24,000 nucleotides of DNA from Bacteroidales bacterium. Its GTDB lineage: Bacteria; Bacteroidota; Bacteroidia; Bacteroidales; Tenuifilaceae. The stretch is from NCBI GenBank assembly GCA_050180705.1, contig JBFXDX010000005.1:106006-130005 (forward strand), in the 5' to 3' direction. Below are positions 1,169 through 18,301 of this stretch, piece after piece (the stretch's first letter is position 1; the number at the start of each line of letters is the position of its first letter). The position numbers and the translations under genes are program-made. The notes beneath the pieces were generated by a model. The model searched no databases. It was not told the origin of the DNA and saw only the letters and a program-made list of their open reading frames with translations.

Positions 1169-4100
1169 TTTTTTAAGAGGTCTTTTAACACATTAGCTAA
1201 TGCTGCAATATTTAATGTTGCATCATTAGAAAGTTGAGATTTTATCAATTGCTCAATATTACCAACTTCTTTTAACTTTGTTTTTGGAAAACGAACTAAT
1301 CGTTTTTGAATGCCTTCAGCAAAAGAACTCATTTCGATACCAAGTATATTTTCTTTGGTCTCATCTAAATCAACTTTGGATATGTTGGTTAAACTGTCAA
1401 GTTCTAGTATTAAATTTTTGAATTTATCATAAAGCAATAATTCTTCTTCATCCTTAATCGTTTCAAGTGTTTTACCTATTACTGAATGAGCAATTGAACT
1501 TAACCAAGCGTTTCTGTCATCTAATTGTGAATCTAAACGCTGAATAAATGTTTTTTGATAAGGCAAGCATAAGTGCTTCTTTAACTTCTTATAACGATTT
1601 TGAAACTTTGGTTTATATTCTTCAAAAGGTAAGGATTCTCCTATGAAATCATTTAATATGAAGTCTTCAAAGCGATTCAGTAGACCATCATAACTTGTTC
1701 TAAGTTCACGGATAGATTCTTGTAACTTAATGATATACTCTTGAAGTTTATCTTTTGATTTTTGAAGTGATTCAATACTGTAACCTAAAGCCATTGGAAA
1801 ATCTTCAAAGAATGATTTTTCAGGGTCTTTAGAGTTTGCTATAGCCTCACGAATTGCTAGAGTTTCCTTTTTTAATCTTTTAGTAGTTCTCGAATATTCA
1901 GAAAGCCCTCGATAAAAGACTAAGAATGGCTTTATTGTCTCTATGAATGTTTGATTATCTAGTTTGTTCTTAGAATTCTGATTTAGAAAAAGGCGATAGC
2001 TATTAAATATATCTAATTTGACTCCTTCAATATCAAAGGATTTAATCTCATAGTTTTCTGGGTACTTTATTACAAGTTCCAACACCTCATCAGTTAAATA
2101 TGGTATGTACCCACTTTCTCCAAACAATGCAAAGTCATCTCTCTTGATGAAAAGAAATGATGCTATCCAGAAATCTATTAACCCTTGTTTTAGCTTAAAA
2201 GGCTGTTTTGTTAATGGTTCTACAAATTCTGAAACTAACTTTCTATTTTGCTTTGCACTTTCTATGAAATCGATGGAGTATTTCCAAAGATGAATGAAAG
2301 AAGAGTTTTGGGTTACTTCTGTATTGAAGTTTATATCATCAGAATATAAATTAATACCATTCTCTTTAAGTAACGTAAGGTATATAGTTTTTTCAGGTGG
2401 AAATTTATTACTATCAAAGCCTAAGTCTGGTTTATTCCAATTATCAACCAATGCACGTAAATATGATTTCTTAGCCGTATAAATAGAACTTGAAATCTTA
2501 TGCTTATTAACCAATTCATTCTTAAATATTGGTGCTTTTGAGTAGACTTGATGACATATTTGTGAAATAAATTTATTGAAATCTTTTTTGCTGGAAATAG
2601 AAACCTCCTCACCTTTGAAGAACCATTTAACTTCTGAGTTTCTTTGATATAGGTTGTTCAATATGTAATGAGTAAGAAGGTTCTGTTGGTGTTGCAATAT
2701 GTTGTTTAGTTCTCTTAGGGCTATCTTATCGCTCTCGTTCTCATCAATCACTTTTCTTGTTTTTTCAATCTCAAAAAGTTGATTTTTTATTATTTTAGAG
2801 TTTTGATAAAATCCATATATAATTGCCTCCTCTTGTTTATATGATTCTCTTTTTATTTCGCTTATGTCAAGTTTTTCACTAAAGATAAGGTTAATGAATC
2901 CGTCTACTTCATCTTTAGGTGCTTCAGATATAGGATATTCAGTGATTCTGAACTCAAACATTCTGGGTGTGCCATTCAGATAAGAATAGCTTTTTGCAAC
3001 AATAGAGGGTAATTGATAATAACGATTTAGTAAAGTGGCAACGTCATTTATCTCATTTACCTTATTCCCTGCCTCAATTAATGCAGATGAGATATCAAGG
3101 TCTGTACCTTCAGAAATAATGAATCGTTTACTATAATTCCTGTACCTTATTATTTTTTTGGATTCTAAGTCATCGATTAGTTTTTTTGCATTCTCTATAC
3201 CTAAACAGATATTTAAGTAATTTTCTAAAAAGTTAATTCCTAAATCTGAACCAGACGCAGAGGTTATATTCAGTAACCCAATTGTTTTAAGTATTCTTGA
3301 ATAATCGTTTATGTCTGAATCAAATGTTCTTTCTGCTAACTCTATTGAATTCTTTATAGCAGACCAAGATGCGAAGTCAGGATTGTAGCGTGAATTGATA
3401 AATGAGTAAAAATTGAATAAAAGGTAATCAAATACGCAGGACGCATTGTAAAATGGATTTGTTTTTTTATCAAAATTATTTATTCCTGTGTGGTCGGTAG
3501 ATTCAAGAAATGAAAACAGAGACCGTTCGTTTTGACCGTATTTTTGTAAGGAAAGTGTAAGAATGTTTGCAGCCACCAAATCTAGAGGGTATAGTTTTGT
3601 TGCTATTTCAGAAGCGTATTCTGAACTGATATTGAAAGCTTTTGTTCTCTTTATAGTTGATACTGTTGATTTAATTAGGCTTTCCTTCTCCTTATCAAAT
3701 GAACCTTGCTGCAAATGCTCTGCTGCTAAAAAAAGTAATTGCTCGACAGGCTCATTAAAAACAATTTCACGAAACCTTCCTTTAATTTTTGTCCACTCTT
3801 GCTTTTGTGTGTTGTTAAGAGAATAAGCATATGCATCAAAATTTTGGTGGACAGTTGTAAGTAGGATGATATTGTAATCAGGGTTATTGACAAACTCAGA
3901 AAGTTGCTGAATAAAATATAGTTCTTTCTCTGGGTCTTGCTGAGATGCATATTCTAGAAACTTCCCAAATTCATCAACCACTAACACAAGCAGGGGATTT
4001 TTATCTCCCAAACCATGATAAAGATTGTAAATTTCAGACAGAATACTTTGTGTAAGGTGTTTTGAATTGTTTATTTCAAAATAATCTGCAAAGTGATTTG

Positions 4101-4386
4101 TCATAGACTTGTATTCGCCTACAATGTTGATAATCTCAACCTTTGGATTTTTAAGAATATTTAGTGAGAAAAAATTTTTCCTATTTGTGATACTTTGCTC
4201 TAATGCCCATAGAAATGATGACTTCCCTGTACCATAAGAACCAATAATGTTAAAAGACCTTATACCCTTTTTAAAGTCATTAGCAATTTGATTCACCACA
4301 CTTATTGAATTTGGTGTCGGTATATAATTTAACTCTCTTGTTATATCTCTAATAATATTTGTAGATGTAGTATATTTAGTTTGCAT
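1165..4386 (-). CDS. sspC: Large P-loop NTPase, SspC-like
   Basis: 1073-aa ORF. Walker A GSYGTGKSSF lies near residue 50, with a Walker B-like LLVLVVDEFGKF. It overlaps the upstream DUF4007-like gene by 11 nt and the downstream PAPS-reductase-like gene by 4 nt. The SspC name rests on this gene order, not on a recognised SspC-specific motif. Confidence 0.6.
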   Translation of the reverse strand: MQTKYTTSTNIIRDITRELNYIPTPNSISVVNQIANDFKKGIRSFNIIGSYGTGKSSFLWALEQSITNRKNFFSLNILKNPKVEIINIVGEYKSMTNHFADYFEINNSKHLTQSILSEIYNLYHGLGDKNPLLVLVVDEFGKFLEYASQQDPEKELYFIQQLSEFVNNPDYNIILLTTVHQNFDAYAYSLNNTQKQEWTKIKGRFREIVFNEPVEQLLFLAAEHLQQGSFDKEKESLIKSTVSTIKRTKAFNISSEYASEIATKLYPLDLVAANILTLSLQKYGQNERSLFSFLESTDHTGINNFDKKTNPFYNASCVFDYLLFNFYSFINSRYNPDFASWSAIKNSIELAERTFDSDINDYSRILKTIGLLNITSASGSDLGINFLENYLNICLGIENAKKLIDDLESKKIIRYRNYSKRFIISEGTDLDISSALIEAGNKVNEINDVATLLNRYYQLPSIVAKSYSYLNGTPRMFEFRITEYPISEAPKDEVDGFINLIFSEKLDISEIKRESYKQEEAIIYGFYQNSKIIKNQLFEIEKTRKVIDENESDKIALRELNNILQHQQNLLTHYILNNLYQRNSEVKWFFKGEEVSISSKKDFNKFISQICHQVYSKAPIFKNELVNKHKISSSIYTAKKSYLRALVDNWNKPDLGFDSNKFPPEKTIYLTLLKENGINLYSDDINFNTEVTQNSSFIHLWKYSIDFIESAKQNRKLVSEFVEPLTKQPFKLKQGLIDFWIASFLFIKRDDFALFGESGYIPYLTDEVLELVIKYPENYEIKSFDIEGVKLDIFNSYRLFLNQNSKNKLDNQTFIETIKPFLVFYRGLSEYSRTTKRLKKETLAIREAIANSKDPEKSFFEDFPMALGYSIESLQKSKDKLQEYIIKLQESIRELRTSYDGLLNRFEDFILNDFIGESLPFEEYKPKFQNRYKKLKKHLCLPYQKTFIQRLDSQLDDRNAWLSSIAHSVIGKTLETIKDEEELLLYDKFKNLILELDSLTNISKVDLDETKENILGIEMSSFAEGIQKRLVRFPKTKLKEVGNIEQLIKSQLSNDATLNIAALANVLKDLLKK

Positions 4387-5254
4387 AGTAGTCCTTTAAT
4401 ATTGAAATAGCTGTAGGTTTAGTCTTAAATTGTAATTCTTTAATCCCAGCATGGTCATTAAAAACAAGAAAGGGATACTTAACTGTAAGATTTTCAATTT
4501 TGGATAAGATTCCACTTTTATTAATGGCGAAAATTGAACCAACGCTACTATAGTTCTGCTCAATACTGTTTATGTTTACAGATAAATCGAAAGAATCATC
4601 ATCCAAAATAGAATACAAAATAACTTCATCGGGAATATCTTGTCTTTCACTGTTCTCTATAATATAAACATCTTCTTTCCCCTTACTGTATGTTTTTACT
4701 AAGTCAAGTTCCGTGAGTAATCCCGAAAATGTGTCTTCTTTGTCTTTACTTTGTGCATTAGACCGTATATACATCTTTGAGAAAACATAGAAATCTTCAG
4801 TTAAGGTTTTCTCATTTATCTGAAATGACTTTTCAATCTCAGCCTTACGTTTAAGAAACCCTATAAAATTATCCCTAGTGAATTCTATCTTTTCCTTGCG
4901 AAGCTCGTTGAAAACAATCGAATAAATAGAAGCAAAGCCCCTTTTAACCAGTTGATAGTGTAAAATCCAAATACTTGCATCATCTTCTAGATAGGGGTCG
5001 AAACCATCATCAGATAAAAGACAGTGTGCAAAATCAGTTAATTCATCGTTAACTGTAAGAATATTAAATGCTTTCATCCAAAATCGAATTGAACTTACCA
5101 TATTCTTTCCTACTCCTAACTCAACCACTGCATCTTCATCACTAAAAGATTTGTTTTTGTTCACAAAATCATATCCTTTTTTGAGCCATAGATGCCTGCA
5201 CTGAAAAGACTCGTGTCCTGAGAAAGTAAACTTGATATTTGGAATTGTACTCAC
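4376..5254 (-). CDS. sspB: DUF4007-like protein, SspB-like
   Basis: 292-aa ORF with a GTG start; the frame closes 21 nt upstream and holds no ATG. The N-terminal FSGHESFQCRHLWLKKGYDF...LGVGKNMVSSIRFW matches the DUF4007 signature as I remember it. It is the first gene of the three-gene overlapping set. Confidence 0.65.
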   Translation of the reverse strand: MSTIPNIKFTFSGHESFQCRHLWLKKGYDFVNKNKSFSDEDAVVELGVGKNMVSSIRFWMKAFNILTVNDELTDFAHCLLSDDGFDPYLEDDASIWILHYQLVKRGFASIYSIVFNELRKEKIEFTRDNFIGFLKRKAEIEKSFQINEKTLTEDFYVFSKMYIRSNAQSKDKEDTFSGLLTELDLVKTYSKGKEDVYIIENSERQDIPDEVILYSILDDDSFDLSVNINSIEQNYSSVGSIFAINKSGILSKIENLTVKYPFLVFNDHAGIKELQFKTKPTAISILKDYYAN

Positions 5255-5306
5255 ACTTTTTAAAATTAAAAGGTTTTATCTGTGAAAATCATAAGATACT
5301 AATGAG

Positions 5307-5314
5307 CAAAAGTA
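5307..5314 (-). promoter_or_regulatory. Candidate Bacteroidota-type -7 promoter element (TACTTTTG) upstream of the sspB-like gene
   Basis: The minus strand reads TACTTTTG, matching the TAnnTTTG -7 consensus of Bacteroides-type promoters. It lies about 53 nt upstream of the GTG start at 5254. Only a T-rich stretch, not a clean TTTG, sits at the expected -33 distance. Confidence 0.25.
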
Positions 5315-5553
5315 TGAATTTTATTAGCATTAAAAAATCGAAAAATATCAACATATAATTGACACTTTGTGGCTTGCAAATGCTTTACTATAACACGAAT
5401 AAGGTAAATTTGTTCGGGAAATGAAACGAAATTCACATATAAAGGGCTGTTCACTTTTTAATCTATATATCGAATAGTTCTTAATACAATCTATAATAAA
5501 AGTATCGATTTTCAAACGTTGGCAATTCTTTGGTGTACTTTTGTCATGTATTA

Positions 5554-5573
5554 ATGCTATACAAGTATAGCAT
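5554..5573. repeat. Perfect 20-bp palindrome ATGCTATACAAGTATAGCAT
   Basis: Read directly: ATGCTATAC AA GTATAGCAT, with 9-bp arms that are exact reverse complements. It sits in the 482-bp intergenic region between the ADP-ribosylglycohydrolase stop and the sspB-like start. Confidence 0.8.
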
Positions 5574-5736
5574 CGTTAATAATTTCTTGTTTCCTTAAAA
5601 AAAGAATCTGATACTATCATATTTGCTTTAGTACAATATATATAATAACAATTCTCTTGGTTCTTATCATAGAACTTATTTATTAGCAATGTGCTAAATA
5701 ACAAACCCATAAATAGTTTGTCTATTCTATTTTGCT

Positions 5737-6696
5737 TCAAACCTTTTTTATTATCACAGCTAATCTCTCAGCCAAATCCACAATATCATTTCTTCTCGCC
5801 AATTTATCCAACCATTCTTGAGGGATACTTTCTATTCCATACAGCAAGCCAGCACAACCTCCTGTCAATGAGGACGTTGTATCTGTGTCGTCACCTAGGT
5901 TTACTGCCTTCAGTACAGCATCTTTATAGTTGTCGGTTGTAAGCAAACACCAAATACTTGCCTCCAAGGTATGAAGGACGTAGCCACTACTTTCTATTTC
6001 GTTTTCAGGAAGTTCGTAAATATTTCCTTTAAACAACCTGTCAAATAAGTTAATCTCTGTCGAATCAACTTTTAACGAATAAAGAAAACTTGGTAATACT
6101 GTTTGTAACTTACAGTAAGCCTCAAACTTGTCTTTACCCATTAGTAAAAGCCTCATAAACTCCAAATAATAAAAGCAAGATAATACTGAGCGAATATGTC
6201 CGTGAGTTATCGATGAAACCTGTCGTGTCAACTCAAACCTTTTTTCAATTGTTTTATCTTTAATGTAAAATAACAAAGGCGAAATTCGCATTAAAGACCC
6301 ATTGCCATTATCTTTTGCTTCTCGACCACCCGCCAGCAGGGGATTGATACCATCTTTCAGTCTGTATATGGCATGTCTGGTGGCATTACCTACATCGAAG
6401 GCCTCTCCACGTGCTGTCCAGTAGCCTTCTGTATACCATTCAACAAAATATCGTGCTATCAGGTTAAGGTCAAACTCATGCGTTAAAGCGTCTGCTAAGC
6501 ATAGTGAAAGTGAAGTATCATCGCTGAAACTGCCAGCAGGCTGAGAATGCGTTCCAAATCCTTTCATATCAGTGATTGGATTGCATTTTAATTCTTCTCG
6601 GTTGCAGAATTCCACGGGAACTCCAAGGCTATCGCCAACAGCTAGGCCAAGTAGTACGGCTTTGATTTTTTCTGTTAATTCTTTTGCATTACTCAT
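5737..6696 (-). CDS. ADP-ribosylglycohydrolase family protein
   Basis: 319-aa ORF with family-typical motifs: LGLAVGDSLGVPVEF near the N-terminus, SFSDDTSLSLCLADAL, GNGSLMRISPL, and the C-terminal metal-site motif LGDDTDTTSSLTGGCAGLLYG. Confidence 0.85.
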   Translation of the reverse strand: MSNAKELTEKIKAVLLGLAVGDSLGVPVEFCNREELKCNPITDMKGFGTHSQPAGSFSDDTSLSLCLADALTHEFDLNLIARYFVEWYTEGYWTARGEAFDVGNATRHAIYRLKDGINPLLAGGREAKDNGNGSLMRISPLLFYIKDKTIEKRFELTRQVSSITHGHIRSVLSCFYYLEFMRLLLMGKDKFEAYCKLQTVLPSFLYSLKVDSTEINLFDRLFKGNIYELPENEIESSGYVLHTLEASIWCLLTTDNYKDAVLKAVNLGDDTDTTSSLTGGCAGLLYGIESIPQEWLDKLARRNDIVDLAERLAVIIKKV

Positions 6697-6804
6697 ATGT
6701 GAGATATTTGGCTATTAAATATATTCGTTTGAAGTCTTTAAAAAGTCTAAATAGTGTTATTTTTTTTAGTTGTGCTTAGCTTATACTTTTGTAAAAACAA
6801 AAAA

Positions 6805-6996
6805 ATGGAAGACAAAAAGTTGACTATGATTGCCCATCAGGATATCTTTAACTCCGATGGAACTCTTGCTTTTATGCTAGTTATGGAATATTTTGACAAC
6901 GAAGGAGTGGTAAAACATGCTTACAAAGCAAAATATCCGAACCTATTCTTTGCGCCAGACCCATTCCTTAATAAATTTCAAATTGTTTTTAACTAG
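6805..6996 (+). CDS. Small hypothetical protein (63 aa from the internal ATG of the 6754..6996 ORF)
   Basis: This is the only plus-strand ORF in the island that is not antisense to a larger gene, apart from the recombinase region. It translates as MEDKKLTMIAHQDIFNSDGTLAFMLVMEYFDNEGVVKHAYKAKYPNLFFAPDPFLNKFQIVFN, with no recognisable motif. It ends 4 nt from the convergent recombinase stop. Confidence 0.3.
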   Translation: MEDKKLTMIAHQDIFNSDGTLAFMLVMEYFDNEGVVKHAYKAKYPNLFFAPDPFLNKFQIVFN

Positions 6997-7000
6997 TGAC

Positions 7001-7588
7001 TCAAAAACTCAAAACATCATATGTTTGCATCAGTTCCTCTTTAGCAATTCCCAAATACCTTCTGGTAATCGCTGGGTTGCTATGATTAAACAACTGGCTC
7101 AATTTAATCAATGCCAGTTCCGCATTACTCCCACTTCGATTGAAAATTTCACGACCAAATGACTTACGTAAAGAATGGCTACTGAAATTCTTAATTTTAA
7201 GATTATACTTGATTTTTAGCGATTTCAATATCACATTAATTCTTTGAATTGAGAATACGCAACCTTTCTGGCTAATGAATATGAATTCATCTTTAGATTT
7301 TGGGTTAATTTGGGTGTAACAATCCTTAATGTGACGTTTTAGCTGGGAATTAATCTTAATTTCCCTGTTCTTCTTAGTTTTGCCTTCGACCAACATAAAT
7401 TCATCCTTGTCAAGTACTTGCTCCCAATTCAGTTTTAGAATATCCGAAATCCTAAGCCCCCAAAAAGTACCACATGCAATTAGTAATGATATACGATAGT
7501 TTTCATCATTGTATAGATTCCTGATTAAATTCATCGCTTGATTCCATTCAAGGCAGTCTGCTGTAGTTTGGCTAAATTTTGCACTCAT
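7001..7588 (-). CDS. Tyrosine-type site-specific recombinase, catalytic domain only (195 aa)
   Basis: The catalytic residues appear in order: WGLRISDILKLNW (Arg I), EGKTKKNREIKI (Lys), SSHSLRKSFG (His-x-x-Arg), NHSNPAITRRYL (His/Tyr nucleophile region). There is no N-terminal SAM-like DNA-binding domain. Confidence 0.85.
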   Translation of the reverse strand: MSAKFSQTTADCLEWNQAMNLIRNLYNDENYRISLLIACGTFWGLRISDILKLNWEQVLDKDEFMLVEGKTKKNREIKINSQLKRHIKDCYTQINPKSKDEFIFISQKGCVFSIQRINVILKSLKIKYNLKIKNFSSHSLRKSFGREIFNRSGSNAELALIKLSQLFNHSNPAITRRYLGIAKEELMQTYDVLSF

Positions 7589-7615
7589 ACTATTTCAGTT
7601 TTGTAGATTATCGAT

Positions 7616-7631
7616 TAAAAGTGAATGTTTT
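7616..7631. repeat. Direct repeat copy 1 (TAAAAGTGAATGTTTT)
   Basis: This 16-mer is identical to the one at 7708..7723. It lies 28 nt upstream of the recombinase start codon, which is on the minus strand. Confidence 0.8.
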
Positions 7632-7707
7632 TACTTGAGTTACATCTCTGATTAATTCTATAACCTTTGTTTTTACTGTGGTTTTCAAAATAATATTCAC
7701 TATTGGC

Positions 7708-7723
7708 TAAAAGTGAATGTTTT
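7708..7723. repeat. Direct repeat copy 2 (TAAAAGTGAATGTTTT)
   Basis: This 16-mer is identical to the one at 7616..7631, 92 bp away. Both copies are followed by a T-rich stretch ending in TTAC. Confidence 0.8.
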
Positions 7724-7790
7724 GTTTTACTGAAAAATGTGCCGTCATATCATTTTTATTTTAAATACCCACGAAACAATTTGTTGTGTT

Positions 7791-7835
7791 ACCCTAATAT
7801 AGTCTATTGAGTAATTAGACCATAATATTTAGGGT
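7791..7835. repeat. Imperfect inverted repeat / extended hairpin
   Basis: ACCCTAA (7791-7797) pairs with TTAGGGT (7829-7835). TAT (7798-7800) pairs with ATA (7825-7827). GTCTA (7802-7806) pairs with TAGAC (7816-7820). The loop is 9 nt. It sits in the 348-bp spacer between the recombinase gene and the 178-aa ORF. Confidence 0.6.
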
Positions 7836-7936
7836 GAGCAAAAATATGAAGCAAAATCTGGGAAAAAAAGCTGAAACTGGCCGTGAAAAGTGCATCAACT
7901 TTGGGTATACTCTAAAATAGTATCAGAAATGACTTG

Positions 7937-8473
7937 TTATAAGAAATCATCATATAATGATTCAATTTTTCTCTTTCTCAGTATTTGCTTTGGTGTTGGG
8001 GGAATGATTGTTATTTTTAATTCGTAGTATATTGTTTTCAACTCATTGATAAAAGTCGAGAAATTAATTATTGCTTTTTCATAATCAACATTATCAATTA
8101 ACGCTTTAAACTTAACATGTAACTCATCAATCTTTGGCATTTCAGTAGAAAAAACATAAGCATGCTGATTTTCCTCAATCTGGTGGTAGAGAATAATAGC
8201 ATGCTCAGCGTTTAGTACATATTTTATGTGGTTTATTGTGAGATTGTTTGAATTAATAACATTAACCAAGTCTCTGTATACGTACATTACAGATTTAGAA
8301 GTGTAGGTTCGTCTTTCTGGTGAATTATCTTTGGTAATCAGTACTTTGAATTCTATTCCACTCCAACTCCAGCTCATCCTATAAGTGTTATTATCAGATT
8401 TTCCAACCAAAGTAATGTAATCTAGCTCCCCAACATTAATAGTTATTAATTCTCGCAACTCTTTCTCTGTCAT
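7937..8473 (-). CDS. Hypothetical protein (178 aa), downstream of the retron RT
   Basis: This long ORF is co-directional with the RT and 286 bp downstream of it. I see no recognisable motif. The C-terminal tail is basic (PKQILRKRKIESL). Confidence 0.6.
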   Translation of the reverse strand: MTEKELRELITINVGELDYITLVGKSDNNTYRMSWSWSGIEFKVLITKDNSPERRTYTSKSVMYVYRDLVNVINSNNLTINHIKYVLNAEHAIILYHQIEENQHAYVFSTEMPKIDELHVKFKALIDNVDYEKAIINFSTFINELKTIYYELKITIIPPTPKQILRKRKIESLYDDFL

Positions 8474-8759
8474 TTTTTTTATTCTTATATATAAAAAAGC
8501 ATTATTAAAAAAGATGATTTCTGGAGGTGTTGGGAGACGAAGCCATTTTGTATTTGCTTGAATAATAATATTATGTGATTTTTAAATTGAAATAAAATTT
8601 GATATAAAAAGCAAAAGAAGTGCTTTAAATGAAACAAATCATTTCATTATATTTTATTACATGAAATGTTTGGATACTTTAAAATGTTTCTCTAACCTAA
8701 TAGAATACTTTTGGGGTCTCGTTTAGTGAAAAGTTGAAATAGGATTTCTTTGAAAAACT

Positions 8760-9872
8760 TTAATTACCTATCGAATAAATACAGTTTGACTTTTCAAACT
8801 TATTCTTAAATATCAAATACAACGTATCATCCTTCCCTCGAATTTGACCAATAAAATTGACATAACCTCTTAACCGATTTAGGAATGTTACTCTCATCTC
8901 ATCCGTCAGTATATGGCTTTTATAATGTTTTTTTACAGCTTCGTCAAGTCCATTCAAGGAAAGGTCATGTATCATAGCTCTAACCTTTTTAAGCAATATA
9001 CGGTCAACGTTGACTCTGTCATTTACAGTTAAGCCTGTTACTGTTTGCTTACGATTCTTGGACTGTATTCTTAGCTTCTTTTGATTTATAGAAAAGTTGT
9101 TTTTCGTAATAATGTTAATTATATCAAGTAACTCATCATGAGATATCTTTCTACTTGAGGAAAAGGTCAAATCATCTGCATAACGAGTGTATGCAAAGCC
9201 ATGGTCTTTGGAAAATTCAATTAGGTCTTCATCTAGTACTCTACATATGAAATTCGAAATAACTGGAGAGGTTGGTGCTCCTATTGGTAATCTACCATTG
9301 AGTGTCGTTAATAATGTAATAGCATTGGTAATTTGTTCATCGAAATTAAAAATGTCAGATAAAAGCAATTCTTTAACTTGTTTTGCTCTAATGCTCGGAA
9401 AAAAGTCCTTTAAATCTATGTTAAGAACGCTCTCTCTACCAACATGTATTTTGGCATTGGCAGCAATATTACAATGTGTACCCAAATAATGTGGATTAAT
9501 AACAAATCCGTGAACTTCTTTTGGTTTTATGCATAAATAGTAAGCTTGCAAGTAGTAGTTTAACCGCTTCTGGATTCTTTTCAATTCGTTTGACGGAGCA
9601 TAGATTTCTCTATATCCGCCTTTTTTCTTGGGTCGATGAAAATGAATGTAGGCTGGATTATTAATTACATTTTCAACTTCACTAAATGTGGCATCTAGCA
9701 ACTTGCAGAGTTCATAAGGAGTATCAATTCTAAGTAACTTTAAGGCATTGTTTTCATGGTAATAGGGTTTAGAACCATGATTAATTTCCCTTACGAGTTT
9801 CCCATTGAAGCATAGGTTTGCTTTATTAGGACTAACTTTTTTAATGGTAATAATTTCTTGTATAGTTTTCAT
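8760..9872 (-). CDS. Retron-type reverse transcriptase
   Basis: 370-aa ORF with RT motifs in order: KKKGGYREIYAPSNELKRIQKRLNYYL (motifs 1-2), VHGFV...NAKIHVGRESVLNIDLKDFFPSI (motif 3 / A), LPIGAPTSPVISNFICRVLD (B), YTRYADDLTFSS (YADD, motif C), and the retron-typical VTGLTVN after the catalytic core. No endonuclease or maturase extension is present. A structured non-coding region with terminal inverted repeats lies immediately upstream. Confidence 0.9.
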   Translation of the reverse strand: MKTIQEIITIKKVSPNKANLCFNGKLVREINHGSKPYYHENNALKLLRIDTPYELCKLLDATFSEVENVINNPAYIHFHRPKKKGGYREIYAPSNELKRIQKRLNYYLQAYYLCIKPKEVHGFVINPHYLGTHCNIAANAKIHVGRESVLNIDLKDFFPSIRAKQVKELLLSDIFNFDEQITNAITLLTTLNGRLPIGAPTSPVISNFICRVLDEDLIEFSKDHGFAYTRYADDLTFSSSRKISHDELLDIINIITKNNFSINQKKLRIQSKNRKQTVTGLTVNDRVNVDRILLKKVRAMIHDLSLNGLDEAVKKHYKSHILTDEMRVTFLNRLRGYVNFIGQIRGKDDTLYLIFKNKFEKSNCIYSIGN

Positions 9873-9883
9873 TTAAAAAAAGA

Positions 9884-10052
9884 TGAGCCGTTGCCAATTA
9901 TCCAAGAATTCTTAAACGCAATTTGCGAGAAGCGGAGCGTAGTGAGCATCGCAGTGAATTGCGTACTTCGCTATCACCACTCCTTTGTGGGTTGCAGGAA
10001 CACAACCGCATAGCCTTGAAAAATGACTCATAATTAGTTAAGCAACGGCTCA
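9884..10052 (-). ncRNA. Putative retron msr-msd non-coding RNA locus
   Basis: A perfect 11-bp inverted repeat, TGAGCCGTTGC (9884-9894) and GCAACGGCTCA (10042-10052), brackets 169 nt directly upstream of the RT start (9872). This is the geometry of retron a1/a2 repeats. The interior is more G+C-rich than its surroundings. On the minus strand it holds several hairpins: GGTTG-N8-CAACC, GCGAAG...CTTCTCGC enclosing about 35 nt, CGCAAATTGCG, and AAGAATTCTT. The exact msr/msd ends and the branching G cannot be set by eye. Confidence 0.7.
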
Positions 10053-10063
10053 ATATTGTTAAA

Positions 10064-11110
10064 TTATAAAGGACTATTATCTATTTCATCGAGTCTATAA
10101 CTTGATATGGAAAATTCACGCTTCACTAATTCGAAGTCTTTAAACTTTGTAAAGTCTTTATCGACCATAAGCTTAATGTCATCAACTCTTCCATTCCTGT
10201 TCTTTGCAATTAATACCTCTGCAACGCCAGTAATGTTATTTCCCTCTTCATCCTCCTGAAATCCATAGTATTCTGGACGATGAATAAAAATTACTTTATC
10301 TGCATCCTGTTCGATAGCTCCAGATTCACGCAAATCTGATAGCTGAGGTCGTTTATTTCCACCTCTGCTTTCAACAGCACGACTCAATTGACTAGAAGCT
10401 ATTACGCACACATTATTGTCTTTTGCAATATTTTTTAGTTCTCGGCTTATATAGCCTATCTCTAAATCTCTGCTATTACGGTATCTGTTAGAACTCATCA
10501 TCTGCAAAAAATCAACCATGATTATTTTAATACCATCCTCTTGAATATGCTTTAAACATTGTGATTTCAATGCAGAGATTGAACAATTGCTACTATCGTT
10601 AACTAGTATTCGGTGTTTTTCTAGTTCCTTTTCAGCATGTAGTAGTCTAGTTTTATCTAGAGGGTTTAGACTATTCTGGATTATCTTATTTACAGCAACT
10701 CCTGTAAGTGCAGAGATAAATCGATAAGTGAGTAATCTTTGAGATAAATCAAAGGTAAAGTAGAGTATGGGGGCTTCAATAGAAACATTCAAGGCTAAAG
10801 ATACTAGGAACTGCGTTTTACCCATTGAAGGTCGCCCTCCAATAACAACAAATTCACCCAAGGACAATCCCCCTATTGCCAAGTCTAAGTCGGTAAAACC
10901 AGTCTTAATAAGGTCGGGGCTTAAAGTCTCGCTCTGTAATGTTTTCAGATTTTCTTTAGCTAAATCAAAAATAGACTTTGACTCTTTGATGTTTATATCC
11001 TTCATCTCATATTCGTACACCAGTCTCTTTATCTGATGCATGATTTCAGCCTCATCCAATCCTTGATTGTTGATTACTGACATTATGTGTTGTAAGATAT
11101 CCTGTTTCAT
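10064..11110 (-). CDS. DnaB-family (RecA-fold) ATPase lacking the DnaB N-terminal domain
   Basis: 348-aa ORF. IKTGFTDLDLAIGGLSLGEFVVIGGRPSMGKTQFLVSLALN covers the linker and Walker A. IIMVDFLQMM is Walker B. SRELKNIAKDNNVCVIASSQLSRAVESRGGNKRPQLSDLRESGAIEQDADKVIFIHRPEYY is the DnaB C-terminal signature. Only about 65 residues precede the linker, so the primase-binding N-terminal domain is missing. The stop codon lies 11 nt from the retron inverted repeat. Confidence 0.85.
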   Translation of the reverse strand: MKQDILQHIMSVINNQGLDEAEIMHQIKRLVYEYEMKDINIKESKSIFDLAKENLKTLQSETLSPDLIKTGFTDLDLAIGGLSLGEFVVIGGRPSMGKTQFLVSLALNVSIEAPILYFTFDLSQRLLTYRFISALTGVAVNKIIQNSLNPLDKTRLLHAEKELEKHRILVNDSSNCSISALKSQCLKHIQEDGIKIIMVDFLQMMSSNRYRNSRDLEIGYISRELKNIAKDNNVCVIASSQLSRAVESRGGNKRPQLSDLRESGAIEQDADKVIFIHRPEYYGFQEDEEGNNITGVAEVLIAKNRNGRVDDIKLMVDKDFTKFKDFELVKREFSISSYRLDEIDNSPL

Positions 11111-11218
11111 ATGTCTAAATTAAGCATTCTAGTTGAATACTTTTTCACTGTTAATAACTAAATATTGAGTACGGTTTTTATAGGAAGATTAAGTATTCCA
11201 CTTTTATTGCTGCCTAAG

Positions 11219-11226
11219 CAAATTTA
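11219..11226 (-). promoter_or_regulatory. Candidate -7 promoter element (TAAATTTG) upstream of the DnaB-like/retron block
   Basis: The minus strand reads TATAAATTTG, which contains the TAnnTTTG motif, about 110 nt upstream of the DnaB-like ATG at 11110. I found no clean -33 TTTG at the canonical spacing. Confidence 0.25.
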
Positions 11227-11266
11227 TAGATAACAATAATATGATAGGCTTAAAGAAAACAGAATT

Positions 11267-12013
11267 CTAATACTCTATAACATCTTGAACAGTATCAGTT
11301 TTTTCGTATTCCTTGTTGTTGTAGTACATCTTTTCTGGGACGTAAATGTGGCTAATCTTCCATCTTCTATCCACTGCATTTAAACCACCAACAGTCTGAT
11401 AGTCGATAGGTATGTAATTGCCTTTAGGCATATCATTTCTATGGTCTATAATGTAATACATGTAACCAGAGGGAATTGCTCCTTTCCAATATACAAGGCA
11501 AAGAGCGTGTCCAATAACCTTGGTTCGTCCAAATCTTGCAATATAGGGCTCTAAACCCCAAAATCTTAACAAACCAGCAGTCATTAAAGCCCAATCGTCA
11601 CACTTCCCTCCTCCATACTTCATAAATCTGTCAGGCCGAAGAATTGTGTCACATATGAAATACCTGTACTTGGCTACTAACATTTTCTGGAAAGATTCAA
11701 TCTCAGGCCAACTTAGAGAAGCATCCCTGTTTAAATCGGCATTGATATACATTTGCTCTAACTTCTCATCATGCAAATAGGTGGCATTTCTGAAAACAAA
11801 GGTGTTGACCTTAATGTATAGTTCATATCTGGATGTAAGTGTGATATTAGAATCTAGAAGAGTATAGGTCTTTTTGTTATTTTTAGTTTTAATAGTATAT
11901 CTATGGTTACGATATAAAAGAGTGTCTTGGGAGAATGCGCTAAATTTAAATAATATGAAATATATTAAAATTAAAAGTATAATTGTGAATTGATTTTTTT
12001 TTGAATAATACAT
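11267..12013 (-). CDS. Secreted or membrane-anchored transglutaminase-like cysteine peptidase-fold protein with an EF-hand-type loop
   Basis: 248-aa ORF with an N-terminal hydrophobic segment (FTIILLILIYFILFKFSAFSQ). A Cys-His-Asp arrangement typical of the transglutaminase core is present: GGGKCDDWALMTAGLLRFWGLEPYIA, GHALCLVYW, YIPIDY. DLNRDASLSWPE (nt 11702..11737) fits the 12-residue EF-hand Ca-binding loop at positions 1, 3, 5 and 12. Confidence 0.6.
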   Translation of the reverse strand: MYYSKKNQFTIILLILIYFILFKFSAFSQDTLLYRNHRYTIKTKNNKKTYTLLDSNITLTSRYELYIKVNTFVFRNATYLHDEKLEQMYINADLNRDASLSWPEIESFQKMLVAKYRYFICDTILRPDRFMKYGGGKCDDWALMTAGLLRFWGLEPYIARFGRTKVIGHALCLVYWKGAIPSGYMYYIIDHRNDMPKGNYIPIDYQTVGGLNAVDRRWKISHIYVPEKMYYNNKEYEKTDTVQDVIEY

Positions 12014-12139
12014 GCTTGCAATTAAAAATTAAACCTGTCCTTTCACGTCCAATATTGCCTGTAAACTTCAATCAAGCCTTGATTATTTGTAAGGAAAACT
12101 TTATACTGATTGAGAAAAAAATGAGCAAGGCCATTAGAA

Positions 12140-14263
12140 TTAATGACAATATATTCTTTTTAATTCTTTAATCATAATGTCAATCGTGTTGGGAGAAATT
12201 TTACTACTACTAGTCGCATTATTTTTCAAATGGTTAATTAAATCTTCGTTTGAATGTTTGTCTAATTTTACCAAACTACCATCTTTTCTTTTATACCCAT
12301 TTTCTCGATGTACTTTTTGAATCCATTCTATTTCAGTTTTTACTTTTTTTAATTCATTTTTTGGAATGAAAGAAGAAATTTTATCAAAAGCACTATAGTC
12401 ATAAATAAAAAGTTGATTCTCATTATCATCAAATAACATTGATGTTTGTTTTGGAATTGGTTTTTGTGTTATTTCTTCATCGATTGTTCGATTTGATTTA
12501 GTTTTCAAATAAGCAATTACAGCCTTCCATTTCCCAATTGTACCTTTCGGAGGCTCTATACGTTCTAAGGCTTTTATATAGTCATCCGAAATATCACCAC
12601 GGTACAATCTAGTCATCTCTGTCTTATAATACTTCTTGTCCTTTTCCTTTAGAATTGAAAAATCAGATACATTAATTTCAATATCTTGAATTAAAATGGA
12701 AATGACATTGTTTGAAATATCTTCATTCTTTCCATCTTTATTAACTTTTGTTTCAACTAAAATCGATTTTGGTTTTTCTTCTTTTGGCAAAATTCCAATC
12801 AATTCGATATTATGAATTTGTTTGAATAGAGTTTTGTAAATTTTGGACAAATAATCTATATCTGACTCAAAAAGACCTGCAGTAAATACCCTTGATAAAT
12901 TAGCAAACCCACAAATAGAACCATAAAAGCCAAAAGCAAGGCGACCATCCTCAATTTCAGATAAAATTAGAAAATCAGTTAATTTTTCAAAATCATCTCC
13001 TTTTAATAGAAATGAGGCAATAGCAGATATCAAACCAGTATTCCATTGGATGTTAAACGCTTCCTGTCCAGCAATATTTCGTCTTAAACTATTTAGGTAT
13101 TTATTTGCATCGTGAGTTTTCCATTCTTCTTCACCGACATAACTCTTAATTTTTCTAGTTATCTCATCAGCTAGTCTTGACCTTTCAGTACTAAACGAAG
13201 ATTCTGTAATGTCAGAAGAAACAAAAATATCATTAATTAGGTTTTGATACATTTCTCTCGTTTCTAGTTTTGTAATAAACGAGTCTTCGTATTGTGTCAA
13301 TCTATTTCCAACTAAAGCGATGCTATTCCATTCAAATTTGGGTTTACTAATATTACTGTTTTCAATCATTTTATTACTCCAATTTTTCAACTCTTGTAAT
13401 GAAATTTCATATTTTGCTCTATCAGTAAAGGTTTCGAGATAACTTTCGAAGTTGTATCTATTTGGAATTCTCATTCCAAAATTGTTATATATTTCATTCC
13501 AAACATTGTTGTATTGGTCTGGCAGAATCGCCCTTAAATATTCTTTTACATCTTTATATTGATATGAAGTGATTTTTTGTAAAAGATATTTTAGTTCATC
13601 AGTTTGTTGCTGAGTTCCTTTTCCCGAGACACTATTAACAATAGCAGAAGAGAGGTTGATGGTCTTGTTAATAACATTTGCTAATTGAACGCTTTCTTTC
13701 GATTTTGCATTATTTGCAGCAATTAAATAGGCATAAGCAAACCCTTTGATTTTGTTTATTTGATTATCTTTTTCTATTTCTTCATAATTAAGGTTTTGAA
13801 TATCATATATGCCATCTAAATTGTATTCTCTACTCTCTGATTGAAAAACAAAAATACTATTCCAATATAATTTGACTAATTTTGTTTCAGCACTTGATTC
13901 AGAGCGTGAAATAATAGTTCTTTTATTGTCAGGAGTTAAGAAATATATTTTGGAATTAAAAGGATTCAAGTATATGGTTCTGTCGGTCTGCCAAATTTCA
14001 TTTTGTATTCTTTTTAAGCCATCCAACTCAACATCAATGTCAACTTCTATTACCATTGGATAATTGACTAACTCACTGTTAGAAATCTTAAATTCGGGGA
14101 ACGCTTCAAAGAGAAGTAATGAATTATTAAAACTATTCAAATCAACTTTCTCGAAAGTTTTATACCCAAAGTTTCTTTGTAAATAAAACCCATGCGGAGA
14201 TATTGATTCACAAGACATTATATTATTAAAGTTCAGAGAACTGGTTGGAATATATAGTTTCAT
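12140..14263 (-). CDS. Large hypothetical protein (707 aa), last gene of the DUF1848/MTase/helicase operon
   Basis: The ORF is uninterrupted and starts 12 nt after the helicase stop. I recognise no Walker, nuclease or other catalytic motif. The N-terminus is MKLYIPTSSLNFNNIMSCESISPHGFY. No transmembrane segment is obvious. Confidence 0.85.
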   Translation of the reverse strand: MKLYIPTSSLNFNNIMSCESISPHGFYLQRNFGYKTFEKVDLNSFNNSLLLFEAFPEFKISNSELVNYPMVIEVDIDVELDGLKRIQNEIWQTDRTIYLNPFNSKIYFLTPDNKRTIISRSESSAETKLVKLYWNSIFVFQSESREYNLDGIYDIQNLNYEEIEKDNQINKIKGFAYAYLIAANNAKSKESVQLANVINKTINLSSAIVNSVSGKGTQQQTDELKYLLQKITSYQYKDVKEYLRAILPDQYNNVWNEIYNNFGMRIPNRYNFESYLETFTDRAKYEISLQELKNWSNKMIENSNISKPKFEWNSIALVGNRLTQYEDSFITKLETREMYQNLINDIFVSSDITESSFSTERSRLADEITRKIKSYVGEEEWKTHDANKYLNSLRRNIAGQEAFNIQWNTGLISAIASFLLKGDDFEKLTDFLILSEIEDGRLAFGFYGSICGFANLSRVFTAGLFESDIDYLSKIYKTLFKQIHNIELIGILPKEEKPKSILVETKVNKDGKNEDISNNVISILIQDIEINVSDFSILKEKDKKYYKTEMTRLYRGDISDDYIKALERIEPPKGTIGKWKAVIAYLKTKSNRTIDEEITQKPIPKQTSMLFDDNENQLFIYDYSAFDKISSFIPKNELKKVKTEIEWIQKVHRENGYKRKDGSLVKLDKHSNEDLINHLKNNATSSSKISPNTIDIMIKELKRIYCH

Positions 14264-14275
14264 AAATTTAAAATT

Positions 14276-15331
14276 TTAAATGTCTGTAATTTCGTCAAAT
14301 TCAGTTGTTTTATAAAAGTTTTCTGGTACATTACCGTTAATAAATGAAGTTAAATCTCCACTATGCATAATGTATAGATTTTTATACGTTCTTGTCATTG
14401 CAACATATAATGATTTCTGTTTGCTATAACCTTTGTCATCATTTTCAATTGTGCAATCAGGTAAAAATACAGTTTCAAATTGTAATCCTTTAGCTGAATG
14501 ATATGTCATTAATTTGGGATTAGACGTTTCAAAGTCTAACGTATTTCTATCATTTTTCCAATTATTTCTATCTCTAAATTGGACTTCATTATTTATTCCA
14601 TTTTGAGTTAGCACTTTACTCGCTTTTTCAACTTGTTCATTATGTGGAAATAATATTCCAACATCAGTCATATTATTATTTTTAATAATTCTAGCAATTG
14701 CTTCAATTTGCTTATCATAGTTTGGATAAAAAATAATGCGAGGGATAGAATTCTCTTTACTTTTATATGTTCCTTCGTTATATCTAGTTCCCACACCAAT
14801 ATAGTTTTCAGTAATTTTGGCTATCGGTTTTGGCAACCTATAATTAAAATATAAGGGAAATTCTGACAATCCTGATTGATATGCTATATCTCTAACATCT
14901 TGCGTAGACTTTAACCCATCATATATTGACTGTGCAGTGTCTCCAAAAAAGAAAAATTGTTTACGAGTAGCCTTCTTGAAATCGTCAATTTCTTCTTTTG
15001 TGAAATCTTGGATTTCGTCAACAATAACATAGTCTGATTGAGGACACCCTAGTTTATTTTTCCAGTGCCAATGATAGTAAAAATCATTTTTTAGCTCTAA
15101 GGTCTTTCGCCCTGAATTCATATAACTACTTAACGATTTTGTAAAAACAATAATTTGATAATCATTGCCTTTTTCTTTTTGAATCTGTTTTGCTTTATGT
15201 AATGCAATGACTGATTTACCGCTACCAGCGCAACCAGATACAACCATTGATTGGTCTAGAGTTCTGTATAATAAATTTCTTTGATAATCATCTAAATCTG
15301 ATTCTTTAATAAAAAAATCCTTCTTTGCCAT
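14276..15331 (-). CDS. Minimal SF1 (UvrD/PcrA-like) helicase-fold ATPase, 351 aa
   Basis: All core SF1 motifs are present in order: VVSGCAGSGKSVIAL (I / Walker A), YVIVDEIQDF (II), FFFGDTAQSIYD (III), FNYRLP (IV), MTYHSAKGLQFETVFL (V), LYVAMTRTYKNLYI (VI). The protein is too short to carry the 1B/2B accessory domains of UvrD or Rep. Confidence 0.85.
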   Translation of the reverse strand: MAKKDFFIKESDLDDYQRNLLYRTLDQSMVVSGCAGSGKSVIALHKAKQIQKEKGNDYQIIVFTKSLSSYMNSGRKTLELKNDFYYHWHWKNKLGCPQSDYVIVDEIQDFTKEEIDDFKKATRKQFFFFGDTAQSIYDGLKSTQDVRDIAYQSGLSEFPLYFNYRLPKPIAKITENYIGVGTRYNEGTYKSKENSIPRIIFYPNYDKQIEAIARIIKNNNMTDVGILFPHNEQVEKASKVLTQNGINNEVQFRDRNNWKNDRNTLDFETSNPKLMTYHSAKGLQFETVFLPDCTIENDDKGYSKQKSLYVAMTRTYKNLYIMHSGDLTSFINGNVPENFYKTTEFDEITDI

Positions 15332-15341
15332 ATCTTGGTAA

Positions 15342-16187
15342 TTAAATTTTATAATTATCTTTAACTAAATAGCCATTACTTTTCTGACAATATTTTGCGG
15401 AATTATAATCTTTCCCCAAAATGTTTATGTATGAACAATTGTTATCGAAAACATGAATTTTGTTAGCAAAACATGAATTTGTCATAATTCGATATGTTAC
15501 CTTGGTTTTATCATTTTTCTTTATTGAATGAGAAATGCTGAAAGTACGTTGAGTAAAGCAATTCCCTGAACACTCCTTTTCAAATTCACCACATGAAATA
15601 GGTATAAGTGTTTTAAAACCACTTAATTCATTAATTGCCCTATTGGCTTGTAAATTCATTAAAATAGGATTAAAGGTTGTTCCAACTTTTGTAGTCACAT
15701 CTAGTAAAAGGAACAGTCCAACTTGTGATAACCTTGGCAAACTAAAAGTTGTTAAGTCGTAATAAAAATCAGTGTTCCCTTCTGCAATTAGTTCGCAACC
15801 CATTTTAGATGACATTATAAAATCATATTGTGAATCTTTAATCCATTCTAGGTCTTTTGTCGTATGTATGGATTGACACTCCGTTTTTAAGGTTATTGTA
15901 AAAGTTGTTCTTTTGGAAAATTCTTCTACAAAATCGCTTAAAACTATGAGTGCATTAGAGTGACCATCTAAAGCAAGTATATTTACATTTTTAATCGCTA
16001 GGCTGTATTTATTAATAGCAACCAACAAACCCATCAGATTTCCACCTGTGCCACTCCCAATATCAAGAATATTTATTTCTTCCTTTGTAGCTAAACTCGA
16101 ATAACATTCATTCTCAAATATATTGTCGAAAACACAAAAACTTTCTCCATAACTTCTTGGGAAATATGTTCCGAGGTAAACCCTCAA
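15342..16187 (-). CDS. Class I SAM-dependent methyltransferase domain (3' part of a frame-disrupted gene; the ORF-track start is a TTG)
   Basis: The SAM-binding motif I is INILDIGSGTGGNLMGL, followed by an acidic motif II region (NILALDGH). The codon at 16185-16187 is TTG, and the same frame stays open without any ATG, GTG or TTG up to 16559. See the next feature. Confidence 0.75.
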   Translation of the reverse strand: MRVYLGTYFPRSYGESFCVFDNIFENECYSSLATKEEINILDIGSGTGGNLMGLLVAINKYSLAIKNVNILALDGHSNALIVLSDFVEEFSKRTTFTITLKTECQSIHTTKDLEWIKDSQYDFIMSSKMGCELIAEGNTDFYYDLTTFSLPRLSQVGLFLLLDVTTKVGTTFNPILMNLQANRAINELSGFKTLIPISCGEFEKECSGNCFTQRTFSISHSIKKNDKTKVTYRIMTNSCFANKIHVFDNNCSYINILGKDYNSAKYCQKSNGYLVKDNYKI

Positions 16188-16648: not shown

Positions 16649-16650
16649 TT

Positions 16651-17739: not shown

Positions 17740-18006
17740 TTAGAAGATGATAAAATACCATCCCATGAATTGAGTTTCAGCATCACCCAATTTCCCAACC
17801 CAAAGTTGATACCTTATTATATAAGCAGATTTTCCAATCATAAAATTATTATTTTTATTTTTATCAAAAACCTGCATATCAATTATATAGCAAGTATTGA
17901 CTTGATGTAATGTCACTATAAATGACCAAGGTATCAATAAGCTGTCAACTCCACCACTTAAACTAACACACTGTCTATCATGTATATAATAAACAAATTT
18001 TATCAT
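17740..18006 (-). CDS. Small hypothetical protein (88 aa)
   Basis: The ORF is co-directional with the DUF1848 gene and immediately upstream of it, and it is not antisense to any larger ORF. The composition is aromatic-rich with no recognisable motif. Its coding status is uncertain. Confidence 0.35.
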   Translation of the reverse strand: MIKFVYYIHDRQCVSLSGGVDSLLIPWSFIVTLHQVNTCYIIDMQVFDKNKNNNFMIGKSAYIIRYQLWVGKLGDAETQFMGWYFIIF

Positions 18007-18298: not shown

Positions 18299-18301
18299 AG
18301 T

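Follow-up and report, generated by a model that had tools for sequence, protein, structure and literature searches.

The locus described here raises the question of whether a reverse transcriptase (RT) gene and the intergenic region upstream of it form a retron and, if so, which protein is their partner. It lies in a 24,000-nt stretch of DNA (hereafter the window) from a Bacteroidales bacterium of the Tenuifilaceae (assembly GCA_050180705.1, contig JBFXDX010000005.1, positions 106,006 to 130,005), and all coordinates without another source refer to this window. An initial annotation, made from the letters of the window, had proposed a retron with a retron-type RT and an upstream non-coding RNA (ncRNA). 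Our analysis suggests that the locus is likely an intact retron in three parts, namely a gene for a truncated DnaB-family ATPase, an msr-msd ncRNA and a retron RT, which would work together in the manner proposed below. These parts follow one another along the minus strand in the order ATPase gene (10064-11110), ncRNA of about 170 nt (9884-10052) and RT (8760-9872), and, by analogy with known retrons, they probably constitute an anti-phage system. The retron assignment itself is ordinary; the helicase-derived partner is unusual, and such a pairing has so far been reported only computationally, in a 2026 preprint.

The RT is a protein of 370 amino acids (aa) with the motifs NAKIH (region X, aa 139-143), RYADDLTF (aa 230-237) and VTGLTVN (aa 278-284), of which YADD, VTG and NAxxH are invariant among 31 RT homologues. 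Because RVT_1 (7.9e-20) is its only Pfam domain, the protein carries no maturase or endonuclease extension, in agreement with the initial annotation, which had read the YADD and VTGLTVN segments in the same way. An N-terminal extension of about 45 aa is specific to, and conserved within, its family. The best PADLOC matches were RT-Protease_XI (5.5e-92), RT-Toprim_I-C (2.5e-91) and RT-TIR_XII (1e-81), with other retron types ranking next. Among the NCBIfam models, the retron Ec67 family (7.7e-72), TIR-retron (4e-69) and St85 (5.5e-57) were matched, compared with 2e-12 for group II introns and 6e-9 for Drt2. Moreover, a PDB sequence search returned retron RTs as all of its top 15 hits, the best being Ec67/Eco2 (6e-37), with Ec86 also present. 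Judged from these matches, the enzyme belongs to the retron RT group and not to the group II intron or defence-associated reverse transcriptase (DRT) enzymes, and the distance between the best retron model and the group II intron and Drt2 models upholds the placement made at first. Direct repeats of at least 30 nt, of the template repeat/variable repeat (TR/VR) type of diversity-generating retroelements, were not found in 5000-15000.

The fusion proteins behind the best models are not reproduced in the window. The RT-Protease model was matched only at positions 5-318 of 506, and the defining type XI feature is missing; likewise, the RT-Toprim_I-C model was matched only at positions 22-310 of 529, with no Toprim fusion of type I-C, and NCBIfam retron_Ec67_fus reached 242 bits, below its cutoff of 450. 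For type XII, the RT part alone was matched (NF042941, 234 bits versus a cutoff of 600), with no TIR fusion. Because only the RT portions of these Toprim, TIR and protease fusion models were matched, the RT can be described as unfused and clade-8-like.

The gap between the ATPase gene and the RT gene measures 191 nt, exactly as annotated earlier. It contains a perfect 11-nt inverted repeat, with TGAGCCGTTGC at 9884-9894 and its exact reverse complement at 10042-10052, which encloses 147 nt; when the gap was shuffled 2000 times with its dinucleotides preserved, only 7 shuffles contained a perfect inverted repeat of at least 11 nt. The earlier description of the gap as locally G+C-rich and hairpin-rich also held, with a G+C content of 41% (43% between the arms) versus 23-33% in the other intergenic regions and 33% in the whole window, and with a predicted RNA fold of -58.1 kcal/mol (z = -3.5; 0 of 200 shuffles as good) in which the inverted repeat forms the closing stem. 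An Rfam scan of 8000-11500 (E <= 10) left the gap unmatched and returned no retron msr family, its other matches lying far below the gathering score. The predicted layout (Table 1) is that of a canonical msr-msd, in which the hairpins P1 and P2 would serve as msr hairpins and the variable long hairpin as the msd stem-loop, and 11 nt separate the end of the ncRNA from the RT start. From its position, G10029 would be the equivalent of the branching guanosine of characterised retrons, while the G of GAUAAUU is predicted to mark the first templated position. The U-run behind the closing stem could be a leaky terminator, a landing site for S1 or the ribosome, or part of the RNA function. Judged by eye only, GGAGUGG (9977-9983) could pair with CCGCUUC in the msd loop, making it a candidate pseudoknot or alternative fold.

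Related loci were collected from metagenome contigs, exact-protein look-ups and viral contigs, and 18 distinct loci, with RTs 41-81% identical to the window RT, were used for the ncRNA alignment. The intergenic region between the ATPase gene (hereafter DnaB_C, after its Pfam domain) and the RT gene is 150-235 nt long in these loci and has one common layout. From 5' to 3', it runs through the closing stem (GAGCCGUUG / CAACGGCUC), an inner extension (AAUUAU / AUAAUU), a near-invariant UUAUG and P1 to a near-invariant P2 (GGUUGUGUUCCUGCAACC), a long hairpin with a locus-variable stem, GAUAAU, the 3' arm and the U-run. In a MAFFT alignment, which is not fitted to structure, 7 of 10 closing-stem pairs showed compensatory change, and RNAalifold on the ten closer sequences added P1, P2, the long hairpin and an inner stem. 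A covariance model (CM R1) built from those ten sequences scored 182.7 bits on the minus strand of the window gap versus 25.6 bits on the plus strand. It matched with 44-204 bits at every DnaB_C-linked locus that has a DnaB_C-RT gap, including loci outside the model building; these matches all lay on the strand of the RT, immediately before its gene, with 15-30 bits on the opposite strand. In the CM alignment, 95.1% of the cells were paired (94.3% once the inner closing-stem extension was included) and 23 of 34 pairs changed on both sides, which was reached by 0 of 500 shuffles and compares with 30-50% pairing in slid controls; the paired percentage is inflated because this alignment is fitted to structure, and the MAFFT result and the distant locus L089 constitute evidence independent of it.

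Across the 18 loci, compensatory change was found in 9 of 11 pairs of the 11-bp closing helix, in all 3 modelled pairs of P1 (98% of cells paired) and in all 8 pairs of the msd-like hairpin stem; the columns of P2 are invariant, with 100% of cells paired. In the inner extension, the UUAU/AUAA core is invariant and the adjacent pair changes from A-U to G-C or C-G in three loci. The G of UUAUG (window 10029) is nearly invariant, and the GATAA columns are invariant or nearly so. More distant loci carry long hairpins of unrelated sequence in the position of the msd-like hairpin. A T run 3' of the closing-stem arm is found in all 18 family loci, in L089 and in the type I-C locus L023. Thus, the msr-msd-type ncRNA closed by a1/a2 repeats that the initial annotation had postulated is indeed conserved, on the RT strand only and directly upstream of the RT, and the inverted repeat recurs in related loci with compensatory changes.

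Furthermore, L089, whose RT is 35% identical to that of the window, has a wholly different perfect 11-bp closing pair (AACCACTGTCC / GGACAGTGGTT) together with the same P2 loop and U-run. Two full-length RT-Toprim fusions of type I-C, L023 and L073 (PADLOC 5e-210 and 1.6e-240), are preceded by the same closing stem, P2 loop (UUGUGUUCCUGC) and U-run, so this RNA architecture is shared with the Eco2/Ec67 group. Within the msd hairpin, the segment UGCGAUGCUCRCUNCGYUCCGCUUCUC keeps its sequence although the stem around it covaries, an unusual behaviour for an msd loop. A distant sub-branch (L049 4087-5912, L021 and L089 2943-4930) has a shorter DnaB_C of 284-301 aa without the N-terminal helices and an RT of 319-320 aa without the N-terminal extension; its member L089, on an IMG/VR contig, holds the ncRNA in a 170-nt gap. 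In Flavobacterium branchiophilum (GCA_006716585.1; L169 5001-6305), the public record gives the RT 434 aa, its start codon having been placed by reading through the ncRNA (at 4966-5156); this is likely an annotation error.

The partner gene encodes a protein of 348 aa with a Pfam DnaB_C match of 5e-79. The TIGR00665 DnaB profile was matched at positions 117-433 of 435 with 277 bits, below its cutoff of 385, and no match to PF00772, the DnaB N-terminal globular domain, was found in this protein. Since the TIGR00665 match starts at position 117, the partner is without the head of about 116 residues and keeps the helical hairpin, the linker helix and the ATPase domain. Its AlphaFold2 model (predicted local distance difference test score 86.8) consists of three N-terminal helices, a RecA core and a short C-terminal helix, and the best PDB/Foldseek matches are bacterial DnaB proteins (E. 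coli and V. cholerae), with 30-34% identity to bacterial DnaB structures. The Walker A motif G-R-P-x-M-G-K-T, the Walker B residue D200, SQLSR, LSDLRESG-IEQDAD and the YRPEYY arginine are invariant in sets of 18 and 47 homologues (down to 31% identity); therefore, the ATPase function is under selection. No nuclease domain is present. The protein thus resembles replicative DnaB in its linker helix and its whole C-terminal ATPase domain with all canonical motifs; unlike replicative DnaB, it lacks the N-terminal residues, carries a family-specific C-terminal tail (F.FS..RL.E...PF, ending in PF) and is encoded in a variable island beside a retron RT. In older work, headless fragments of E. coli DnaB kept ATPase activity and single-stranded DNA (ssDNA) binding and lost helicase activity.

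The linkage of this gene to the other two parts is strict. A DnaB_C gene (about 347 aa) lies immediately upstream of the ncRNA and RT on the same strand in 22 of the 22 loci with enough upstream sequence, and when the neighbouring open reading frames (ORFs) were clustered over 20 loci, DnaB_C and RT were the only families in common, the other flanks being unrelated, with genes such as those for a type I restriction-modification system, AbiEii, HipA/Fic and helicases. The identities of the two proteins to the window copies are correlated (r = 0.92). In a neighbour-joining tree, built with no bootstrap from 159 RTs of all fetched loci, the 22 DnaB_C-linked RTs fell into one clade of 26 tips, the remaining 4 tips being contigs cut off upstream. 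These results show that an ATPase-competent DnaB-like gene is obligately co-inherited with the retron RT and its structured ncRNA. On this comparison, the conserved accessory component, which had been left unnamed earlier, is the upstream DnaB_C gene and not the 178-aa ORF downstream of the RT.

Clustered at 90% identity, each of the two proteins of the family yields at least 120 clusters, and the best 120 matches per protein are all unfused, about 350-370 aa long and more than 50% identical, many of them on shared contigs. Where named, the hosts all belong to the Bacteroidota, including the cultured species F. branchiophilum and Pedobacter glucosidilyticus (GCA_000799115.1), whose ncRNAs scored 179 and 183 bits, respectively. 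Among 2.9 million viral contigs, no family member of at least 41% identity was detected, and one distant DnaB_C-RT pair (L089) was found; a genome contig collection searched with a single RT sequence yielded one distant locus only. In three of the more distant loci, a gene for a protein of about 473 aa follows right behind the RT on the other strand (L011 2563-3996, L014 3535-4956 and L015 6085-7506).

How does this locus relate to known retrons? Mestre et al. 2020 placed the Toprim, TIR and protease RT fusions all in RT clade 8, and their 13-type classification contains no helicase partner, the word 'helicase' being absent from the paper (PMC7736814). Judged from its model matches, the window RT is clade-8/type XI-like yet unfused, so the locus fits none of the 13 published types. 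Type XI, which provides the best PADLOC RT model through its RT part only, was described as having no recognisable ncRNA (PMC7736814); in contrast, the window locus has a clear ncRNA and its RT has no protease domain. A preprint of May 2026 based on SPIRE genomes proposed, by computation only, two type XI-like lineages that lack the protease; in one of them, TXI_noncan_h (29 loci), stand-alone DnaB_C proteins are associated with the RT and an a1/a2-flanked ncRNA lies upstream. The preprint describes the role of DnaB_C as unclear, and its table also gives type XI rows of low confidence from Bacteroidota in which DnaB_C is a neighbour (bioRxiv 10.64898/2026.05.14.725207). Because the type XI, I-C and XII fusion features fail and the lineage description fits, we assign the window locus to this DnaB_C-associated lineage, a membership that is probable and is based on a comparison by description, not by sequence. 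The shared features are an unfused RT with type XI as the best type model and with NAxxH and VTG motifs, a stand-alone DnaB_C in an adjacent gene (within two genes of the RT), hosts from the Bacteroidota, a conserved ncRNA that bears an a1/a2-type repeat and directly precedes the RT and, in one row of the preprint, a transglutaminase-like neighbour beside DnaB_C, as in the window. The ncRNAs differ in that the TXI_noncan_h model is a compact double stem-loop of 23 pairs, whereas here a covarying msd hairpin is also present and 40 pairs are counted. The preprint puts its ncRNA 22-104 bp upstream of the RT start, and the distance in the window is 11 nt. Also, the preprint set of 29 loci omits F. 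branchiophilum, P. glucosidilyticus and most of the family. The earlier statement that the msDNA (multicopy single-stranded DNA) of this retron is probably uncharacterised remains right in experimental terms, but the lineage and a partial ncRNA model had already been proposed computationally (bioRxiv 10.64898/2026.05.14.725207).

Retron Eco2/Ec67 (type I-C; PDB 9I2F and 9LM3) has the closest solved RT and falls into the same neighbourhood, Mestre clade 8. It makes msDNA, which cages the effector until a phage nuclease that degrades the msDNA triggers release (PMC12916289). The Eco2 effector is a TOPRIM nuclease fused to the RT, whereas the window encodes an unfused RT and a separate, nuclease-free DnaB-like ATPase. 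The type I-A retrons Ec78/Ec83 (PtuAB) and the type I-B retron Eco8 (OLD-family ATPase-Toprim) likewise combine an RT and msDNA with a P-loop ATPase from an adjacent gene; however, their ATPases are of the ABC/SMC type and coupled to HNH or Toprim nucleases, while the window partner is of the RecA-fold ring-helicase type, and their RTs are among the PDB matches but distant (1e-9 to 1e-18).

By analogy, especially with Eco2, we infer a branch point, msDNA synthesis and an anti-phage role for this locus. The ncRNA would fold with its ends closed by the 11-bp stem and the 6-bp extension, and its conserved msr hairpins would be bound by the RT, which may prime from the 2'-OH of the conserved G10029 and copy the long msd hairpin with its conserved inner segment into an msDNA of roughly 65-80 nt. 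The resulting RT-msDNA complex would bind the DnaB-like ATPase and hold it inactive, the ATPase probably sitting as a hexamer on the single-stranded stretch of the msDNA. Once a phage causes the msDNA to be damaged, modified or sequestered, the ATPase would be freed and might engage ssDNA or replisome partners unproductively, or titrate loaders, so that replication is arrested (abortive infection). This action of the helicase-like protein is speculative. More specifically, a headless replicative helicase captured as a retron effector, with the msDNA, whose conserved single-stranded segment lies inside a covarying hairpin, as a trap that is bound by the helicase ring or threaded through it, and with the loss of msDNA in infection freeing a fork-poisoning or loader-titrating ATPase, is a tentative and rather doubtful version of this scheme.

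Several points weigh against our reading of the locus, in addition to the inflated paired percentage of the CM alignment. The branch-point G is a candidate assigned from its position. The replication-arrest step is conjectural because a DnaB-like effector has no characterised precedent, and PADLOC gave no matching retron-effector model for the partner, its only match being mad8 at 1e-4. Loci of the L021/L049 sub-branch have a DnaB_C gene that runs into the start of the RT, and an unfiltered CM search detected no ncRNA in them. The position of DnaB_C in TXI_noncan_h is given as offset +1 in 14 of 20 and -1 in 5 of 20 cases, compared with a consistently upstream position in our 22 loci; because DnaB_C is always upstream in this sample, the offsets of the preprint may not be strand-aware. 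Finally, the ATPase could alternatively be a sensor or a helper of cDNA synthesis.

These two alternatives, and two others that discard the defence role or the retron itself, were weighed against the same observations. If the DnaB-like protein were a decoy or sensor, phage helicase loaders or DnaB inhibitors would bind the mimic, alter the RT-msDNA complex and thereby trigger the response. The partner is a close structural copy of the linker and C-terminal domain of DnaB, its top fold matches include E. coli DnaB complexes with lambda P and DnaC (9oa1, 6bbm, 6kza and 6qel), which bind this part of DnaB, and the primase-recruiting head is absent. Nevertheless, a passive decoy needs no strict conservation of ATPase residues, yet all of them are conserved, and no other conserved gene is available as the toxin; we consider this explanation unlikely. 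Quite unlikely is a role of the ATPase as a processivity or maturation factor for the cDNA, unwinding the ncRNA or the RNA-DNA hybrid, with an effector that is variable, located elsewhere or missing. Such a role would agree with the intact ATPase motif set, with downstream genes that vary between loci and with the joint expression of the two genes, which follows from the ncRNA sitting between them. However, the RTs of characterised retrons, among them that of Eco2 as the closest, produce msDNA in the absence of a helicase, headless DnaB fragments lose helicase activity, and all characterised retrons have an effector, for which no other conserved gene is available here.

Highly unlikely is a role outside defence, in which a mobile element would use the RT, ncRNA and helicase as its replication or priming module and the RT product would act as a primer or as the place where the helicase loads. 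DnaB-family helicases are typical of phage and island replication, the phage_DnaB and SPI-7-island dnaB models match the partner, recombinases lie nearby in the window and one distant member (L089) is on an IMG/VR contig. Against this, the flanks of the cassette are unrelated between loci and contain neither conserved element ends nor further replication genes, the viral contigs yielded no member at the 41% identity level, the primase-binding head is absent and the neighbours are typical of defence islands. Thus the decoy or sensor, cDNA-helper and mobile-replication explanations each fit the conservation pattern less well than a retron with a DnaB-like effector. The remaining possibility takes the inverted repeat with its U-run for a mere terminator or attenuator that separates unrelated genes, and the RT for a defence enzyme of the DRT, UG or abortive infection (Abi) type or a degenerate RT of group II intron origin. 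An intrinsic terminator does look like a stem with a U-run behind it, and the RT gave weak matches to group II intron RT and Drt2/Drt4 models; yet the stem encloses 147 nt of conserved, covarying structure, the terminator scan was negative there, the E-values of the retron models are better by 60-80 orders of magnitude than those for group II introns and DRTs, the RT carries neither a maturase nor an endonuclease domain and no TR/VR-type repeats occur within 5 kb. This last reading is implausible and is already contradicted by the covariation and profile results.

To our knowledge, retron effectors are nucleases, NAD- or nucleoside-targeting enzymes, membrane proteins or proteases. A DnaB-like ring ATPase acting as an effector with no nuclease would, if true, represent a different route of stopping phages and tie retron immunity to the replication machinery; likewise, a captured headless helicase would, if true, define a new effector class in which a core replication protein is turned into an immune weapon. 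Because the large family, spread across Bacteroidota, occurs in the cultured F. branchiophilum and P. glucosidilyticus, experiments are feasible. The full ncRNA model closes a gap, as type XI-like retrons were long thought to have no recognisable ncRNA, and the compact, well-defined msd hairpin could serve retron-based editing in Bacteroidota.

Table 1 Positions in the window of the retron parts, of the predicted ncRNA elements and of neighbouring genes in the island.
Feature	Position	Strand	Remark
Accessory gene, 348-aa DnaB-family RecA-fold ATPase without N-terminal globular head	10064..11110	minus	
Intergenic region, full covariance-model match of retron ncRNA (msr-msd), 191 nt	9873..10063	minus	
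Closing stem, 5' arm (a1/a2-type), UGAGCCGUUGC	10042..10052	minus	
Inner closing-stem extension, 5' side AAUUAU	10030..10035	minus	pairs with 9896-9901
Candidate branching guanosine (2'-OH priming), G of UUAUG	10029	minus	right after the closing duplex
msr-like hairpin P1 (AGUC ... GGCU)	10012..10028	minus	
msr-like hairpin P2, GCGGUUGUGUUCCUGCAACCC	9989..10009	minus	near-invariant sequence
msd-like long hairpin, stem ACGCAAUU/AAUUGCGU	9916..9964	minus	perfect 8-bp inverted repeat
Conserved segment of about 27 nt with inner stem	9927-9954	minus	inside the msd-like hairpin
Conserved GAUAAUU	9896..9902	minus	AUAAUU is the 3' side of the inner closing stem
Closing stem, 3' arm, GCAACGGCUCA	9884..9894	minus	
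U-run	9875..9881	minus	right after the closing stem, 2 nt before the RT start codon
Retron RT, 370 aa, unfused	8760..9872	minus	PADLOC, Pfam, NCBIfam and PDB matches; invariant motifs
PAPS-reductase-like gene	65-1168		island neighbour
1073-aa ORF	1165-4386		island neighbour
DUF4007	4376-5254		island neighbour
ADP-ribosylglycohydrolase	5737-6696		island neighbour
Tyrosine-recombinase catalytic domain, short, 195 aa	7001-7588		island neighbour
DUF1848	16651-17739		island neighbour
Large serine recombinase	18302-19954		island neighbour

The ATPase gene, the ncRNA and the RT are probably co-transcribed, and the transcript probably starts upstream of the DnaB_C gene. One site of the Bacteroidetes -7 motif TAnnTTTG lies there (11219-11226), with the motif occurring at chance frequency in the window, and none was found between the DnaB_C gene and the ncRNA. 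A sigma-70 promoter scan was at chance level, and a terminator scan found no terminator.

In its wider setting, the retron looks like a member of an integrated island of defence and mobile genes spanning 1-20000, and housekeeping genes (M23 peptidase and Dxr) are found from 20224 on. The loci of relatives are flanked by defence and mobile genes as well, including AbiEii, a type I restriction-modification system, HipA and Fic. Two adjoining genes were considered as further parts and set aside. Directly upstream of the DnaB_C gene, 11267-12013 encodes a transglutaminase-like DUF553 protein with an N-terminal hydrophobic signal-like segment; as a core part it was rejected, being kept in the three closest lineages only (L082, L083-85). 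Downstream of the RT, past a 286-nt gap (8474-8759, 23% G+C), lies the 178-aa ORF (7937-8473), which as an effector candidate had no Pfam, PADLOC or NCBIfam match and a homologue in the closest relative, L082, only. Another recurrent neighbour is a small UvrD-like helicase (window 14276-15331), found two to three genes upstream of DnaB_C in three otherwise different loci (window 12140-16187, L083 1-3824 and L169 1-3158). Its large partners vary, being a 707-aa protein in the window, 2CompART/2CompARG in L083 and HSP70 in F. branchiophilum, and the helicase with its variable partner is possibly a separate neighbouring defence system.

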